Shown: one piece after another, positions 52,350-60,965 of the stretch | Numbering within the stretch: the stretch's first letter is position 1 | How the letters are laid out: every line of letters begins with the position of its first letter | IMG/VR virus record: IMGVR_UViG_3300044712_002337 | Coordinates: 18,564-82,563 of that record | Length of the DNA: 64,000 nucleotides | Direction: 5' to 3' (one strand) | Source: a virus | Taxonomy: Duplodnaviria > Heunggongvirae > Uroviricota > Caudoviricetes | Program-made: the position numbers and the translations under genes | Notes under the pieces: model-generated | Database searches by the model: none | What the model was told of the DNA's origin: nothing | What the model saw: only the letters and a program-made list of their open reading frames with translations

Positions 52350-52611
52350 CGAAGTGTACATCTGCTACGCCTTTCACGAAGTCATCGGGGACGGCGAGAT
52401 TTCCTGTAACCCAATCACGGGGGCGCGGTTCACGTCGCCAGAGCACGCCGCCGAAGTCCTCAAACTGTGGCGAGCGGACAGCGAGCCACTGCCGCCCCTG
52501 TTCCTGTGTCAGCACACGGTCCAGCCCATCATCGCCGCTGACGCGGCGAGTAGAGAAGTCGCGTGCGGGCTGGCTCCGCCCGGGGCCGTGGGGCCGAGCC
52601 CCACATTTTGA
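52339..52611 (+). CDS. Hypothetical protein, 90 aa
   Basis: GGAGGT SD. Confidence 0.6.
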   Translation: MKTSEVYICYAFHEVIGDGEISCNPITGARFTSPEHAAEVLKLWRADSEPLPPLFLCQHTVQPIIAADAASREVACGLAPPGAVGPSPTF

Positions 52612-52621
52612 AAGGTGAAAA

Positions 52622-52855
52622 ATGACCACCCATAGAGTGTTCCAAAGGGTCAACTGGGAGCAACTCCGGCTCCAGAAGGAGTGTCTCGTCCGGGTGTCTG
52701 GGTATAACGGGCGGGCGCCGCAGGTCGGGGCCGAGGAGGCCAACCTGCTGTGCGGGGTGGTGGCCCTCCTGGACCACTTCCAGGACTGCGCCGCCGAGGG
52801 GCTCGGCGAGAAAACCGTGTTCGGAGACCTGTCCGATGAGGGAGAAACGGGCTGA
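52622..52855 (+). CDS. Hypothetical protein, 77 aa
   Basis: Repeat-element SD. Confidence 0.65.
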   Translation: MTTHRVFQRVNWEQLRLQKECLVRVSGYNGRAPQVGAEEANLLCGVVALLDHFQDCAAEGLGEKTVFGDLSDEGETG

Positions 52856-53174
52856 GCCCCAGGCCTATCGCGTCGTCCTGAAAGACCCCACCTGGCTCCG
52901 CGACGGCGACCGCCCCGTCCACCTGGTCGAGCGACACGTCCACCTGCTCGGGTTCTTGACCGGGGGCAAAGTCCTCATCCCGCTGGGCGGGCGAGACCTG
53001 CGGGCCTCGCCGGATGACGTGCTCGACTCCCGCCCCCTTCGGACCGAGTGGTCCCACGCGGACGTGGACGAGGCGAACACCATGCGGCTGACGTGCCGGT
53101 ACTGCGGGGCGTGGCTGAGTCCGTCGGACGACGGGTACGGGGGCGAGTACGGCCATTGCGGGTGTGCGGAGTAA
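52836..53174 (+). CDS. Hypothetical protein with C-terminal CxxC...HCGC
   Basis: ORF track; followed by a terminator. Confidence 0.6.
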   Translation: MREKRAEPQAYRVVLKDPTWLRDGDRPVHLVERHVHLLGFLTGGKVLIPLGGRDLRASPDDVLDSRPLRTEWSHADVDEANTMRLTCRYCGAWLSPSDDGYGGEYGHCGCAE

Positions 53175-53204
53175 CCTCCGCACACAGTGAAAGACAGGAA
53201 TGCG

Positions 53205-53228
53205 GGCGGCCTTGGCCGCCTCTTTTTT
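53205..53228 (+). terminator. Intrinsic terminator
   Basis: GGCGGCC-TTG-GCCGCC then TCTTTTTT. Confidence 0.7.
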
Positions 53229-53244
53229 CGTACAGGGAGTTCCT

Positions 53245-53337
53245 ATGAGGCCGAGCCTACTCAAAGAGACGGTGAAGTCGTTCAAATACTCTAAAGTTCC
53301 TCTGTGGTTGTGGTCGGGTCCGGGGCTCGGACTTTAG
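53245..53337 (+). pseudogene. Orphan 30-codon copy of the AAA ATPase N-terminus
   Basis: MRPSLLKETVKSFKYSKVPLWLWSGPGLGL-stop vs MKPSLLLETVKSFRGSKVPLWVWGPPGCSK at 54260; has its own AGGGAG SD. Confidence 0.85.
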
Positions 53338-53403
53338 GATTGTGAGTACGGGGTTTTCTTGGATTCGGGGTAGAGGCCTCCGAACCCAAGGAGACCTCAG
53401 TTT

Positions 53404-54309
53404 ATGTCAGAGAAATTCGCCCGGAACTGCCCGCAGTGTGGGAAGGAAATCCTCCACACGAACAAGTATTACCGGAACCACAGCGAACGTGATAAACGCC
53501 CGTGTCGGGCGTGCAACCTCAAACCACACCAAGGTAAGGGTGAGAAGGCGCCCTTCTTTGGGAAGAAGCACACCCAGGAGACGATTAATAAACTCCGCGA
53601 AAGAGACACTAGCCGCTGGAAAACGGACGAGTTCAAGAAGAAGATGTCGGTTGTCACGAAGGGTGAGCGCAATCCGATGCACGGTAGGACAGTGTACGGT
53701 GTGTGGGTTGAGAAGTACGGGCAAGAGGAGGCTGATAAGCGATACGAGGCCATGCTGGTGAAGCAGAAGGCTAGGTCAACGGGTAAGAGGAACCCGATGT
53801 ACGGGAAGCCCTCACCAAGCGGGAGCGGCAACGGTTGGTCAGGGTGGTATAAGGACTGGTATTTCAGGAGTTTGCGTGAACTTTCGTACGTCATCAATCA
53901 TTTCGAACGGAATGGTATAGCATGGACTACGGGAGAAACGATTCGCATCCCTTACACGGACCCGGTTGGCCGGGATAGGACTTACTCGCCGGACTTCATC
54001 GTTGGGGGCACGATTATCGAAGTGAAGCCTCTGAAGCTGCACCCCTCCCCGCTCGTGACAGCGAAGAGACTCGCGGCTGAAGCGTACTGCTCGCAGAATG
54101 GGCTGGTTTATCTTCTGACCGACGCTACTCCACTCACTGACGACGAGATTCAAGAACTACACGAGCGCGGGGAAATCGTTTTCCTACCCCGGTACGAAAA
54201 GAAGTTTCAAGAACGGATGGCGGTTAGGTCAAAAACGCCTACTTTAAAGGATTCAACTGATGAAACCGAGTTTACTTCTGGAGACCGTGAAGTCGTTCCG
54301 AGGGAGTAA
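53404..54309 (+). CDS. Free-standing endonuclease: zinc ribbon + NUMOD3 + TnsA_N-like PD-(D/E)xK
   Basis: CPQC...CRAC; FFGKKHT / NPMHG / NPMYGK; FRSLRE...YSPDFIV...IEVKP. Confidence 0.85.
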   Translation: MSEKFARNCPQCGKEILHTNKYYRNHSERDKRPCRACNLKPHQGKGEKAPFFGKKHTQETINKLRERDTSRWKTDEFKKKMSVVTKGERNPMHGRTVYGVWVEKYGQEEADKRYEAMLVKQKARSTGKRNPMYGKPSPSGSGNGWSGWYKDWYFRSLRELSYVINHFERNGIAWTTGETIRIPYTDPVGRDRTYSPDFIVGGTIIEVKPLKLHPSPLVTAKRLAAEAYCSQNGLVYLLTDATPLTDDEIQELHERGEIVFLPRYEKKFQERMAVRSKTPTLKDSTDETEFTSGDREVVPRE

Positions 54310-55333
54310 GGTTCCGCTCTGGGTGTGGGGGCCGCCGGGCTGCTCGAAGTCCTCTCTCGTTAAACAGGCCTCGCAGCAGTTGGAAATTGGTTTGGTCGAC
54401 GTGCGCAGCACCCTGATGGACCCGGTCGACCTCCGCGGTCTGCCTACAGTGGACAAGAAGGCGAATCAGACGCGTTGGTGCCCGCCCGACTTCTTCCCGA
54501 CCGACGGGGAGGGGTTCCTCTTCCTGGACGAACTCGCCCAGGCACCCCCGATGATGCAGGCGGCACTCCTGCAACTCGCCCTGGACCGTAAGGTGGGCGA
54601 CTACGAACTTCCGCCGGGGTGGACCGTCATCGCGGCGAGTAACAACGCGAACGACCGGGCCGGGGTGGGCAAGGTCATCACTCCCCTGCTGAACAGATTT
54701 TGTCATCTAAATTTAGAAGTTAGTACGAGCGACTGGTTGGACTGGGCGTTGTCCGCCGGCGTCCGCCCCGAGGTGGTCGGGTTCATCCGCTTCAAGGAGT
54801 CGATGCTCCTGCAGTTCAACCCGGCGAGCGGGGCGAAGGCCTACCCCACCCCGCGGAGCTGGGAGTTCACCTCGAACGCCCTGGCTTCGCTTGAAAAACA
54901 TCCCGCCAGGGATGCGGTCCTTTTCGACGTCGTCAAGGGGTGCGTCGGGGACGGGCCGGCGGCGGAGTTCGTGTCGTTCGTCAAGCTCATGAACAAACTC
55001 CCCACGCCCGAATCCGTTCTCTCCGACCCGCACGGGTCGACCGTGCCGACCCAGATGGACGTGCTCCACGCCCTGACGAGCAGCCTGACCAGCCACGTGA
55101 GCGACCACCCGGACAAGCTGGGGGCGTTTTTGGATTACGCGAAACGGCTGCCGAACGAGTTCTACGCGTTCGCCGTCACGGGGGTGACGGCCGCGTTCAA
55201 GGGGCGGCAGGCCACCCTCATCAAACACCCCGGCTTTAAAGAGTTCGTGAAGACGGCGCGGGAGCGGGGCATCATGCTCGATGTCGGCGGGGCCGACACG
55301 AGCAAGGGAGGAGTCAGTCAGGACTTCAGATGA
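54260..55333 (+). CDS. MoxR-like AAA+ ATPase
   Basis: WGPPGCSKS, DPVDLRGLP, LFLDEL, IAASN, LLNRF, PTPRSWE. Confidence 0.92.
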   Translation: MKPSLLLETVKSFRGSKVPLWVWGPPGCSKSSLVKQASQQLEIGLVDVRSTLMDPVDLRGLPTVDKKANQTRWCPPDFFPTDGEGFLFLDELAQAPPMMQAALLQLALDRKVGDYELPPGWTVIAASNNANDRAGVGKVITPLLNRFCHLNLEVSTSDWLDWALSAGVRPEVVGFIRFKESMLLQFNPASGAKAYPTPRSWEFTSNALASLEKHPARDAVLFDVVKGCVGDGPAAEFVSFVKLMNKLPTPESVLSDPHGSTVPTQMDVLHALTSSLTSHVSDHPDKLGAFLDYAKRLPNEFYAFAVTGVTAAFKGRQATLIKHPGFKEFVKTARERGIMLDVGGADTSKGGVSQDFR

Positions 55334-55392
55334 GTGGGGCTCCGCCCCACAGCCCCGTGGCCCTGCGGGCCACATTTTAAAAAGGGAAACCT

Positions 55393-55806
55393 GTGACCGT
55401 TTCACCCGAACACCCGGCCGTCCGCGCCGCCGCCAGGTGGTGGGCCGACCAGCTTCGCACGCGGCGGGCCTCGACCGTCGGCGACGAGACCATGGACCTG
55501 ATGATGATGGTGGCAGACGGCCAGAACCCGTCGGTCTCCCCCGAAGACGCCGACCGGTTCGAGTCGGCCCTGGCTCACGAAATCGCCGCCTTCCTCTCCG
55601 GCTCCCGGTGGGAAGAGTGGCCGGAGGTGGTCGACGTGGATTACTGGCCGGACCCGACCCTCGGCCGGGCGCTCGGCGCGATTGGTCGTGCCGGTGGGTT
55701 GAACGTGCTTCCCGTCAAGACGGTGATGTGGGTGGGGCCGAAGAAGGTCGAAGTCCGCCGCGGCTACCGGCAGCCGGAGGTGGTGGTCTGGTCTTCGGAT
55801 GTGTAG
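55393..55806 (+). CDS. Hypothetical protein, 137 aa (VDYWPD..L)
   Basis: Exactly bracketed by inverted repeat elements. Confidence 0.75.
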   Translation: MTVSPEHPAVRAAARWWADQLRTRRASTVGDETMDLMMMVADGQNPSVSPEDADRFESALAHEIAAFLSGSRWEEWPEVVDVDYWPDPTLGRALGAIGRAGGLNVLPVKTVMWVGPKKVEVRRGYRQPEVVVWSSDV

Positions 55807-57139: not shown

Positions 57140-58015
57140 ATGGTGACCAAGACGACCGCGTGGGGCGTAATCAGCTTCTGGTCGCTGTCGGAGTCTTGCG
57201 ACCGGCGGGTGCTGAACGAGGGGTGGTCGGCGCTCGGTTTGAACAAATACGTTCCGGACGCCCCGAATGATTTCGCCGTGCTCAAGCGGGCGCTCGAACA
57301 GGTGTACCCGAAGGCGGGCACCATCCCCCGCCAGCTCCGCACGAAGACCGGGTTCTTCCTGCTCGACGAGACGCGGGGCGTGGACGCCAACCAGTACGGC
57401 GGGACGACCACGGTGAAGCTGCGGCCGGGAACCAACGGGCTGGACTTCGCCAACACCGACGGGTCGGAGTTCGTGTACGACGACCGGGCGATGGAGGTGG
57501 TGAGCCGGTTCCGCGAGGGGCAAGGGCGGCTGAGCGCGGCCCAACTGGCCAAGGCGATGACGGCGGTGCTCACCCAGGAGTACCACGCGGTGGCCCTTCG
57601 CCCGAGCGGCGGAATCTATTGGATGTCAGGTCATCACAATGACAACTGGCGGGCGGCCGCCGAGGTGGTCGAGCGGGCGTGCCCCGGGTCGAGCGTGTAC
57701 TTCGTCGAGAACGGGGCCGACACGGACTCGGTCCGCGCCGTGCGGGACGCGGTCATCCACTCGGTCGAGGTGCAGTCCCGCCAGATGGTGAAGGAGATGG
57801 AGGAGGGCGACCTGGGGGAGCGGGCCCTCCGCACGAAGATGACCGAGATTTCCCGGCTGGCCGACCAGGTGGTCGAGTACGAAGCCATCCTGGCCGAGTC
57901 GCTGGAACCCCTGCGGGCCCGCCTGGAGGAACTCCGCCAGGCCCACGGCACGGCCCAGCTCCTCGCCTCGGTCGGCGGGACCGCCTCCACGCAGAAGGAG
58001 TACTCGTATGCGTGA
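57140..58015 (+). CDS. AAA/vWA-associated protein (DUF3150/DUF6744-like, tentative)
   Basis: LRPSGGIYW motif, coiled-coil C-terminus, lies between the AAA ATPase and vWA genes. Confidence 0.6.
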   Translation: MVTKTTAWGVISFWSLSESCDRRVLNEGWSALGLNKYVPDAPNDFAVLKRALEQVYPKAGTIPRQLRTKTGFFLLDETRGVDANQYGGTTTVKLRPGTNGLDFANTDGSEFVYDDRAMEVVSRFREGQGRLSAAQLAKAMTAVLTQEYHAVALRPSGGIYWMSGHHNDNWRAAAEVVERACPGSSVYFVENGADTDSVRAVRDAVIHSVEVQSRQMVKEMEEGDLGERALRTKMTEISRLADQVVEYEAILAESLEPLRARLEELRQAHGTAQLLASVGGTASTQKEYSYA

Positions 58016-60965
58016 GTTCGACCCGCCCGCGGAGGGGTTGGACCCCCTGGCCGCCCTCGACCGGGAGGCCAAGCGGCAGGCCGCCGAGGAGGCCGCCCTG
58101 GAGAAGCACCGCCGGGTGGTGGGCCGGTTCTACGTGCTGGGGGCCAGTCCGAACCGGGCGTTCCTGACGGCCCTGGCCCTCCAGCTTGAGCCGAAGGTGG
58201 ACTGGGAGGCTCAGACCGCGTGGACCGACGGGAAGAACATCGGGTTCAACCCGGACTTCGTCGGGGGGCTGAGCGACACGCAGTGGGACGCGGTGACCGC
58301 CCACGAGATTCTGCACGTGGCCTGCCTCCACCACGTGCGGCGGGGCGACCGCGACCCGGAGCTCGCGAACATTGCATGTCTGCGGGGTGACGCACTGGTA
58401 TTAGGGGTAGACGGCAGCAGTCGTAGAATCGAGAACTTAGCAATCGGCGACACAGTAATTGGGATTCGTGGTGGCAAACTAGTCCGGACGAAAGTCCTAA
58501 ATGTGACTAGCAAGTATGCACCCGAGCTAGTTAGTGTTCGCTGTGGCGAGGACGAGGTTCTCTGCACGCCGGAACACCTCTTTCTCACCAGTGATGGGTA
58601 TGTGGAAGCCTCACAGCTCGGTTCCTCCGGCAACGCGCCATGGCAAGTTGTCCGTTTCAGAGAAGGCGTTTCTCTCGAAACATTGCCATACCATGACCAA
58701 TGTGGAGTTAGCAACGAAACTTGGAAGAACCTACAACTCAATTGCGAGTTACTTCAGGAAGTGCCCAAGGACAAAAATCGTCAAACGCAGAAATGTTGCA
58801 CCGTTCCTGAAAATGAGTGCCGAGACTCTGGCTTACATGGCAGGTATTATCGACGGCGAGGGGACGGTAACAGTAAGTGGTCGAGGCCAGGCCCAAATAT
58901 CAGTAGCGAACACGTCCAACAAACTGGCCGGATGGATGGAGAGCAAGGGGTTTGGGCTCAGAAAAACTCGCAATATAAAGGGGCGGCCATACTGGAATAT
59001 GGTACTGGGCGGGTATTCCATCATCGAGCCTCTGAAGAAGCTATTGCCCTATCTCGTTATCAAGCGTCAGCAAGCCGAGCTGGTAATCGAGTATATCGAT
59101 CTGCGACTGTCGCAAGGGCATCGCTTCACGCTCTCGGCGCGGATGGAGGAGATTATTCGCGAGATTCGGGCCTTGAACGAGCGGCGTACTCCTGCCGAGT
59201 TCAAAAACATCAAGCTGGAGCCCGAGTATATGACATCACCACCTGCTGCGGCTCTTTCATCGCCAACGGATTCGTCGTCCACAATTGCGATTTAGCTATT
59301 AACTCCATCCTGGTGGACGCCAACTTCGATTTGCCGGCGTGCCGCCTCCTGCCCGGGGAGGGCGAGTACAAGGACCTGCCGCCGGGCCTGGGTTTTGAGG
59401 ATTACTATGCTCGCCTGCAGCAGGCTCGCAATGAAAACCCCGGAAAACAGGGGAACGGGGCTCCACAGGGCGGCGGGGCGAAGGGCGACCCCGGCGGGTG
59501 TGGCGAGGTGCGGGACGGGGGCTCCGACGCCTCCTCTTTGGCGGAAGCGGAAGCGAACGCCAAGGTGATGGTGGCCCGCGCGGAACAAGCGGCTAAAGCC
59601 AAAGGAGAACTGGGGGCCGGTCTGGAAAGAATGACGGGGGCGGCTTTGCGACCCCCGTCCAACTGGAAGGACGAGCTTCGAGACTTCGTCTCCCAGAAGG
59701 CCAAGGAAGACTATTGTGTCGCCCCGGAAACACTAGTCTTGAATGCTGAATTAAAATGGGTGACGGCTGGAAGCCTCAAGCCAGGCGACCGTCTGTTAAC
59801 AGTAGAAGAGTACCCGGCTTCCGGTCGGTGTCATCGTAGAATGTGTGAAGCGGTAGTTCAAGGAGCTTATATTTTTGAAGCACCGCGAATGGTTATGGAG
59901 AATGATAAGGGGCCACCAATCGTGTCGACGCTTGACCACAAGTATTTAGCTGCTACGGATGGCTCTGGTAACCGTTGGGTTAAAGCGAAAAGACTGAAAG
60001 TGGGGCGGAAAGTCAAGTTTTTGGTCGACCCATGGAGTGACGACCGTTCGGATTCATGGCTCGCTGGCATGTATGACGGAGAGGGATATCTAACCGCAAA
60101 CCCTCCCGACCGCCCAAGGTCGGGCGTGAACCTTGGTATTGCCCAAACCGCTGGTCCGGTACTCGACCGCGTCTTAGAAACTTTTGATAGTCTTGGACTA
60201 AACGCGGGTCAGTATGTGAAGCCTCGACTGTTGGTGAATTCCGCTGAGGCGGGGAGACCAGTCAGTAAGAAGGATTGTTACTCGATTGGGATTAATAGAT
60301 TATCGAATATCCTTCGTCTGCTTGGTGTTTACCGACCGATTCGATTGCTGACAAAGTTTCAACATATGATGAGAGAAAAATGGTTTACTTTTCCTCGCCC
60401 CGGTAAAGCGACCATCACAAAACTTGAACGAGTTGGCGACGGGCCTGTCGTATCTCTTAAAACCTCGACGGGCACACTCATAACGAACGGAGTTGTTAGC
60501 CACAACTGCTGGGCCCACCCCAACCGCCGGTTCATCGCCCAGGACCTGTACCTGCCCGGCCTCCACTCGGAGACCCTGGGCACCGTGGCCGTCGCCGTCG
60601 ACTGCTCGGGCTCCATCGACGAGACCCTCCTGGCGGAGTTCGGGAGCGAGCTCCAGGACATCCTCTCTTGTTTTCCGAAGACGAAACTCCACACCTTTTA
60701 TCACGACGTGGACGTCCACAAGGAAGAGGTGTGGAGTTCCGAAGACGGGGAACTGAAGCTGAGCCCGGTCGGGGGCGGGGGCACCTCCCACGTCCCGGTG
60801 TTCGAGCGGATGGCCGCGATGGACGAGCAGCCGGCGTGCATCGTATGTTTGACCGACTGTTATACTACTTACCCGACGAGTGACCCGGGTGCCCCTGTCC
60901 TGTGGGCGTGCTTCGGGAACGACGGGGCGAATCCGCCCTTCGGGAGGGTGATTCACGTGCGGTGA
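58008..60965 (+). CDS. Metallopeptidase (HExxH)-vWA protein (DUF2201-like) with two inteins
   Basis: TAWTDG, AHEILHVAC.H, NIA|CDLAIN, DY|CWAHPNRR, VAVDCSGSI, GGGGTSH, CLTD. Confidence 0.92.
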   Translation: MREFDPPAEGLDPLAALDREAKRQAAEEAALEKHRRVVGRFYVLGASPNRAFLTALALQLEPKVDWEAQTAWTDGKNIGFNPDFVGGLSDTQWDAVTAHEILHVACLHHVRRGDRDPELANIACLRGDALVLGVDGSSRRIENLAIGDTVIGIRGGKLVRTKVLNVTSKYAPELVSVRCGEDEVLCTPEHLFLTSDGYVEASQLGSSGNAPWQVVRFREGVSLETLPYHDQCGVSNETWKNLQLNCELLQEVPKDKNRQTQKCCTVPENECRDSGLHGRYYRRRGDGNSKWSRPGPNISSEHVQQTGRMDGEQGVWAQKNSQYKGAAILEYGTGRVFHHRASEEAIALSRYQASASRAGNRVYRSATVARASLHALGADGGDYSRDSGLERAAYSCRVQKHQAGARVYDITTCCGSFIANGFVVHNCDLAINSILVDANFDLPACRLLPGEGEYKDLPPGLGFEDYYARLQQARNENPGKQGNGAPQGGGAKGDPGGCGEVRDGGSDASSLAEAEANAKVMVARAEQAAKAKGELGAGLERMTGAALRPPSNWKDELRDFVSQKAKEDYCVAPETLVLNAELKWVTAGSLKPGDRLLTVEEYPASGRCHRRMCEAVVQGAYIFEAPRMVMENDKGPPIVSTLDHKYLAATDGSGNRWVKAKRLKVGRKVKFLVDPWSDDRSDSWLAGMYDGEGYLTANPPDRPRSGVNLGIAQTAGPVLDRVLETFDSLGLNAGQYVKPRLLVNSAEAGRPVSKKDCYSIGINRLSNILRLLGVYRPIRLLTKFQHMMREKWFTFPRPGKATITKLERVGDGPVVSLKTSTGTLITNGVVSHNCWAHPNRRFIAQDLYLPGLHSETLGTVAVAVDCSGSIDETLLAEFGSELQDILSCFPKTKLHTFYHDVDVHKEEVWSSEDGELKLSPVGGGGTSHVPVFERMAAMDEQPACIVCLTDCYTTYPTSDPGAPVLWACFGNDGANPPFGRVIHVR
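58377..59285 (+). mobile_element. Intein 1 (303 aa), no endonuclease motifs in frame
   Basis: CLRGDALV...IENLAIGD...CTPEHLFLT...VYDITT...FIANGFVVHN|C; the middle of the in-frame sequence has no nuclease motifs. Confidence 0.92.
58594..59295 (+). CDS. LAGLIDADG endonuclease with N-terminal HTH, in the +1 frame inside intein 1
   Basis: SEKAFLSKHCHTMTNVELATKLGRTYNSI; LAYMAGIIDGEG; LLPYLVIKRQQAELV. Start uncertain (ATG 58594, 58600 or 58693). Confidence 0.85.
   Translation: MGMWKPHSSVPPATRHGKLSVSEKAFLSKHCHTMTNVELATKLGRTYNSIASYFRKCPRTKIVKRRNVAPFLKMSAETLAYMAGIIDGEGTVTVSGRGQAQISVANTSNKLAGWMESKGFGLRKTRNIKGRPYWNMVLGGYSIIEPLKKLLPYLVIKRQQAELVIEYIDLRLSQGHRFTLSARMEEIIREIRALNERRTPAEFKNIKLEPEYMTSPPAAALSSPTDSSSTIAI
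59715..60506 (+). mobile_element. Intein 2 (264 aa) with in-frame LAGLIDADG
   Basis: CVAPETLV...STLDHKYL...WLAGMYDGEG...VVSLKTSTGTLITNGVVSHN|C. Confidence 0.92.

Follow-up and report, generated by a model that had tools for sequence, protein, structure and literature searches.

A probable homing cassette with a replacement 5′ gene end at the Walker A codons of a phage AAA+ ATPase gene

The locus described here is best explained by a free-standing homing cassette that has inserted at the Walker A codons of an ATPase gene and has carried with it a replacement 5′ end for that gene, a reading to which we assign a probability of roughly 0.8 and in which cleavage of the target and resistance of the carried allele are presumed. 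It lies in a stretch of 64,000 nucleotides (the window) from a virus record of 176,391 bp that is listed as 100% complete and has 69.7% GC. Insertion at Walker A and a carried replacement start had both been proposed in the first-pass annotation of this DNA, and they are now supported by the recurrence of the arrangement across the nuclease family, by one pair of related loci (L069 and L073), and by the finding of duplicated starts in none of 56 other viral ATPase loci.

Arrangement of the locus and its two ATPase starts

Read 5′ to 3′ on the forward strand, the locus comprises an orphan ATPase start, a leader with a hairpin, a nuclease gene, and a complete ATPase gene with its own start. The orphan, which standard gene callers overlook, is an ORF of 30 codons plus TAG (53245-53337) with its own Shine-Dalgarno (SD) sequence, GGGAG, 5 nt before the ATG (53235-53239). 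It had been described as stopping exactly at the Walker A lysine; the ORF and its SD stand, but similarity ends after Gly29 (53329-53331), just before the lysine position, codon 30 encodes leucine where 119 of 119 homologues of the family have lysine, and the stop follows one codon later. Likewise, the orphan's loop is not strictly the canonical one it was taken for, as serine replaces the first glycine, but the identical loop occurs in an intact homologue (P0096). The cassette leader of 72 nt (53332-53403, with the left border at 53332 presumed) is followed by the nuclease ORF (53404-54309), the final 50 nt of which are also the first 50 nt of the ATPase ORF (54260-55333, 357 aa), an overlap exactly as first reported. 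The replacement N-terminus through Walker A spans 54260-54352, with Ser29 at 54344-54346 and Lys30 at 54347-54349, and its SD, part of a degenerate start box (54243-54251), lies within the nuclease reading frame. From the Gly29 codon to the downstream Lys codon the insert measures 1,015 nt, only 72 nt of which are non-coding. The cassette has a GC content of 0.47-0.60 against about 0.67 in the flanks, the nuclease ORF has a copy of the duplicated gene end on either side, and the hybrid reading frame is intact. A Logan contig from run SRR26046407, which may stem from the same sample as the record, encodes identical nuclease and ATPase proteins with the same 230-nt gap, and an assembly artefact is therefore unlikely.

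Within the 176-kb genome the two starts pair with each other by tblastn (E 1e-9), and the same search found no third copy. They are 62% identical over the 90 nt compared, without an indel, and their codons divide into 11 identical, 9 synonymous, and 10 non-synonymous. Both fit the family profile equally well (23.5 vs 24.7 bits), and GC3 (0.68 and 0.75) does not tell the copies apart. They have in common an N-terminal signature that is absent from all other homologues, and hence both come from one narrow lineage. Such a shared origin would suit a history in which the gene start was first duplicated locally and the nuclease only afterwards came to lie between the two copies, with no foreign allele involved. 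However, a nucleotide divergence of 38% with no indel or early stop, together with 9 synonymous changes among the 20 residue-keeping codons, points to two translated alleles, as the first-pass annotation had held; moreover, none of the 56 loci has duplicates without a nuclease, and in unrelated genes the orphan breaks off at the same point. We consider local duplication highly improbable.

Some further features of the two starts can be recorded here. The orphan start is preceded by a terminator-like GC hairpin and T run (53204-53229) that looks like a degenerate version of the box found at the phage's starts, and in fact both ATPase starts carry this phage-wide box (GC hairpin plus T-run/A-run/GG) in degenerate form (53204-53240 and 54243-54251), the orphan having kept the hairpin and the new start the core. 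These degenerate boxes hint that the donor may have been a related phage. Recombination at the short words common to both starts would mostly produce frameshifts, the exception being a 12-nt exact in-register match (53266-53283 and 54281-54298) at which recombination would cleanly delete the nuclease and leave a single hybrid gene, of the full 357 aa and carrying the recoded loop.

The complete gene encodes a MoxR/dynein-like AAA+ ATPase by sequence, with all core motifs present, including Walker B, sensor 1, and the arginine finger, and with Pfam scores slightly below the gathering cut-offs. Its nearest relatives are 52-58% identical, the named homologues come from Zavarzinella, and it is followed by partner genes of the DUF6744 (57140-58015) and DUF2201 vWA (58008-60965) families, the same partners as at a related locus (L348). 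In its loop, serine occupies a position where the nearer homologues have glycine (117 of 119) or alanine (2 of 119). Serine was found there in 3 of 150 distant intact homologues and in none of the 119 nearer ones, and no nuclease lies beside the three serine-loop homologues on their short contigs. The downstream ATPase is thus probably functional on its own, since its serine loop occurs in distant intact homologues without the nuclease. Given the same three homologues, serine is not diagnostic as a mark of a resistant allele. In MCM and MoxR proteins, alanine or, less surely, serine is also seen at the corresponding place in the loop.

Several side observations concern the same gene and its neighbourhood. 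Twelve codons at the arginine-finger motif (54689-54724) have a GC3 of 0.17, matched by 0.03% of windows of this kind genome-wide, and could possibly be another stretch of a conserved motif that has been recoded or has recombined. One database call (P0001) starts the ATPase 21 codons late, and two homologues that apparently begin at Walker A (P0308 and P0320) proved to have mis-called starts. The DUF2201 vWA gene contains two intein-like inserts with Hint matches.

The layout also allows the question of whether this 1,015-nt insert, from Gly29 to the downstream Lys codon, is spliced out or bypassed to restore a canonical Gly-Lys loop. The join would be in frame and would yield the loop seen in P0096. 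The last base of the skipped stretch would be G, and the hexamer that straddles the left junction (53329-53334) is the reverse complement of the downstream Lys-Ser codons (54347-54352), which would open the right-hand exon; this last match may be due to chance, half of it being inherent in the gene. However, the insert has almost no room for an intron between its coding parts, and its 3′ part codes for two proteins; the last base of the 5′ exon would be A, where group I introns have U; and the matched landing codon of a bypass is absent. No Rfam intron was matched, even at E up to 5: the scan of 52500-55500 returned two chance-level matches only, and that of seven related loci returned tRNAs only. 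The lack of a ribozyme match and the 72 non-coding nt speak against a group I or group II intron. Furthermore, the downstream start is complete with an accessible SD, and the serine loop is tolerated in intact homologues. Splicing or bypass is considered very unlikely.

The nuclease and its leader

The product of the nuclease gene (301 aa) contains two CxxC pairs, NUMOD3 repeats (Pfam NUMOD3, E 9e-12), and a TnsA/T7-endonuclease-I-like PD-(D/E)xK domain (Tn7_TnsA-like_N, E 9e-6), with further weak sequence matches to T7 endonuclease I and to the DNA-binding domain of I-TevI. The residues E159, D197, E206, and K208 are intact and are invariant across 31 relatives, which bears out the original assignment to a NUMOD3/PD-(D/E)xK nuclease. 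In a structure model of pLDDT 87 the closest fold, with scores in the middle range, is that of TnsA (Z 7.6, rmsd 6.5, 126 aligned), ahead of Vsr (Z 5.5) and I-Bth0305I (Z 5.0); Foldseek gave a probability of 0.98 for its matches but E values of 0.009-0.05, with none at 0.001 or better. A Vsr-like or EDxHD enzyme is ruled out by the invariant PD..ExK motif, and the ranking of TnsA above the two alternatives agrees. The gene is present in a single copy in the genome, and its product ends in a C-terminal extension of about 25 aa that covers the ATPase start, relatives stopping about 25 residues earlier. The nearest relative (P0122) is 52% identical and is its sister in the tree (SH-aLRT 91), and the gene encoding it overlaps a P-loop kinase gene. 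With a nuclease domain, intact catalytic residues, and DNA-binding modules, in a gene that lies outside any intron or intein and occurs patchily beside a conserved gene, being absent from the 56 viral ATPase loci, the enzyme has the features of a free-standing homing endonuclease.

Between the orphan and the nuclease gene, nucleotides 53348-53401 of the leader form a hairpin (-32.2 kcal/mol, z -4.8, reached by 0 of 200 shuffles), in the core of which 53350-53362 pairs with 53386-53398. A hairpin over part of the nuclease SD had been noticed before, at 53358-53390; it is real, but longer than described, and the SD (53388-53393) is buried whole, with a probability of being unpaired of 0.0 against 0.52 and 0.67 at the two ATPase starts. 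Over its last 31 nt, the leader is similar to that of the closest relative of the nuclease (L002; 0 of 2000 shuffles, or 11 of 2000 when the SD part is left out), in which this segment likewise folds into an SD-hiding hairpin. A sigma-70 promoter scan found none. A −35-like word common to the left ends of cassettes is possible and too weak to claim.

Recurrence across the nuclease family and the search for cassette-free alleles

The nuclease belongs to a family of over 1,100 uncharacterised homologues, from which 137 distinct loci were surveyed, 124 of them scorable for Walker A. In 55 of these 124, a Walker A motif lies within −100 to +300 nt of the nuclease stop, compared with 2 of 124 when the reverse strand is read and 7 of 98 in windows further downstream. 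Fifty of the Walker A loci had sufficient DNA upstream for an orphan start to be sought, and in 19 of them, the present one among these, the orphan exceeded the 99th percentile of shuffled sequences (controls: 1 of 50 for reverse strands, 0 of 39 for windows further upstream), and alignment adds one more case (L044). The orphans break off at loop position 6 in ten loci, position 5 in eight, and position 4 in one, and they occur in at least eight separate places on a nuclease tree built by a quick method with weak deep branches. At about three in five Walker A loci an orphan is not detectable.

Evidence for movement comes from L069 and L073, in which the leader, the nuclease, and the new start are 100% identical as far as about 10 codons beyond Walker A; their orphans are 92% and their gene bodies 65% identical (85 nt available). 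At the level of sequence, this is the footprint expected of a cassette that has moved between alleles. The same pair bears on the extent of the transfer. The nuclease could have come with an entire ATPase gene, the orphan being a remnant of the displaced older gene; this would be the same kind of element with a longer conversion tract. No close relative places the right border in the window, and the lower GC3 over the first 45 codons of the ATPase (0.65-0.75) is within the range of other N-termini in the genome, both of which would allow a whole-gene arrival. Against this, the tract common to L069 and L073 ends shortly after Walker A, and most later parts of the ATPase gene have a host-like GC3 of 0.85-1.0. 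Transfer of the whole gene is considered improbable, and a cassette that carried the gene start is preferred.

Selection could in addition maintain the orphan itself, either as a leader ORF, with ribosomes that terminate on it modulating the hairpin 11 nt downstream, or as a left homology arm in later rounds of homing, an add-on that would be compatible with the homing cassette. The SD, the ATG, and the open frame of the orphan are all retained, and many related orphans are also open, ending at a nearby stop. Decay is nevertheless common (L020, L091, and L121, for example), and the differing orphans beside the identical cassette of L069 and L073 are as expected if orphans are refreshed from each recipient. 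As such, a selected orphan appears rather unlikely.

The 56 distinct viral ATPase loci, only 29-45% identical in their ATPases to that of the window, include none with a nuclease and none with both N-termini, the best score for a duplicate start being 33 or less against 110 here. No cassette-free sister allele was found by single-protein scans of viral contigs, a protein search with the ATPase N-terminus only matched just this phage, and an 18-nt DNA pattern matched 93 stretches, with the ATPase in none of the 80 loci listed. Neither these searches, which brought up no close cassette-free allele, nor composition, by which the copies cannot be told apart, gives a direction of transfer at this locus; the probable direction is read from position, with the orphan coming after the intergenic hairpin and the new SD lying within the nuclease gene.

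Other members of the family show different arrangements. Another 22 of the 137 loci form a class of their own, in which an intein between the second glycine and the Gly-Lys of the Walker A loop is split by the nuclease (L007, L012, L027, L050, L056, L089, and L104, for example); the intein N-fragment is only about 25 residues long, making these candidate natural atypically split inteins. One nuclease clade precedes 5′-3′ exonuclease or C5 DNA methylase genes and not P-loop genes (L083, L132, L141, L143, L146, L154, L155, L162, and others), and neither the exonuclease nor the methylase clades yielded an orphan start. In 15 related kinase loci (L034, L063, L067, L069, L073, L074, L099, L105, L107, L110, L113, L118, L131, L135, and L165), and not in this window, the replacement start has an insert of 5, 6, or 7 nt in Walker A. 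These inserts place a stop, of which all three kinds are seen, right after a Pro codon and end in a cognate or near-cognate Pro triplet, and the reading frame beyond them runs on without a stop for 117-287 codons and differs at many synonymous sites, a pattern suggestive of a short ribosome hop over the insert.

Taken together, the family could be a homing lineage specialised on P-loop-encoding DNA that moves among unrelated NTPase and kinase genes, with the host genes kept alive by three devices at the same codons, namely the recoded replacement start of this window, the split intein, and a start with a 5-7 nt stop gap hopped by ribosomes. The nearest relatives of the nuclease adjoin kinase genes, and the window would on this reading record a jump from a kinase to a MoxR-type ATPase gene. 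This wider interpretation is tentative, and we place it a little short of even odds.

Proposed mechanism and comparison with known systems

The mobile unit would consist of the leader, the nuclease gene, and the donor ATPase start to just past Walker A. In a co-infecting phage, the nuclease would cut the Walker A codons of a cassette-free allele. The right end of the break could then be repaired by homology with the donor ATPase body, while the left end, bearing the recipient's first 29 codons, would be joined to the cassette leader, probably by a non-homologous join in the first invasion, with the orphan supplying left-hand homology in later ones. The outcome would be the layout seen here, with an orphan start, the nuclease, and a full-length ATPase translated from the SD inside the nuclease gene, for which splicing is not needed. 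Recoded loop codons would protect the carried allele, and the hairpin may delay translation of the nuclease, the SD becoming free only on a shorter transcript or at a late signal.

If correct, a selfish nuclease can sit in the codons of a catalytic motif without an intron or intein, by means of a swapped-in start, and such swapping would make hybrid proteins and move N-termini and translation signals between phages. Furthermore, as the orphan narrows the presumed cut site down to a few bases, the target of a widespread nuclease family becomes directly testable. No relevant paper on 5′-end replacement in phages or on NUMOD3 plus TnsA homing endonucleases was found, in a search of largely open-access journals.

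Several known systems have elements in common with the phage cassette. The seg and mob genes of T4-like phages are likewise free-standing, lie beside their presumed targets, and have hairpins over their SD sequences (mobE, segB, and I-TevI), but they are intergenic, cut hundreds to thousands of bp away, and no duplication is mentioned for them (PMC2988022), whereas the cassette is intragenic, its insertion point is the presumed cut site, and it leaves a scar copy. Similarly, T4 mobA and the gene 60 bypass combine a nuclease with an altered target site that travels with it and protects the carrier (10.1101/2022.08.31.505936), although in the cassette protection would be by recoding, with no gap.

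The fractured genes with split inteins and Vsr-like or GIY-YIG endonucleases (Dassa et al., 2009; PMC2677866) also have a nuclease within a phage gene, an SD hairpin, and a downstream overlap, of 6-69 nt, and the group formed by these genes, Aeh1 nrdA/mobE, and I-Bth0305I (PMC3239194) has NUMOD3 repeats before a restriction-fold domain, as the cassette does. The 22 split-intein loci of the nuclease family are exactly of this fractured-gene type. In the window, however, the downstream part is complete and the enzyme is of the PD-(D/E)xK type (D197, E206, and K208) and not Vsr-like/EDxHD; a fractured gene with a split intein is rejected here, as the ATPase has no Hint match and its pieces are redundant.

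The cassette also resembles the mORFs of fungal mitochondria, which form gene hybrids in atp6 of Allomyces macrogynus and in atp6, atp9, cox2, and nad3 of Glomus (PMC3630166). There, an endonuclease gene lies in a host gene together with a foreign gene end, the native end is stranded about 1 kb away (PMC3630166), and neither an intron nor an intein is involved; the phage locus has the same layout, in which the carried end would be the foreign one and the orphan the native one. The mORFs replace the C-terminus, use LAGLIDADG or GIY-YIG enzymes, and reside in mitochondria (PMC3630166), whereas the cassette replaces the N-terminus and the translation start, uses a NUMOD3/TnsA-like enzyme, and resides in a phage. 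To summarize, the principle is already known from fungal mitochondria, and the phage cassette works like a mORF but is not a member of that group.
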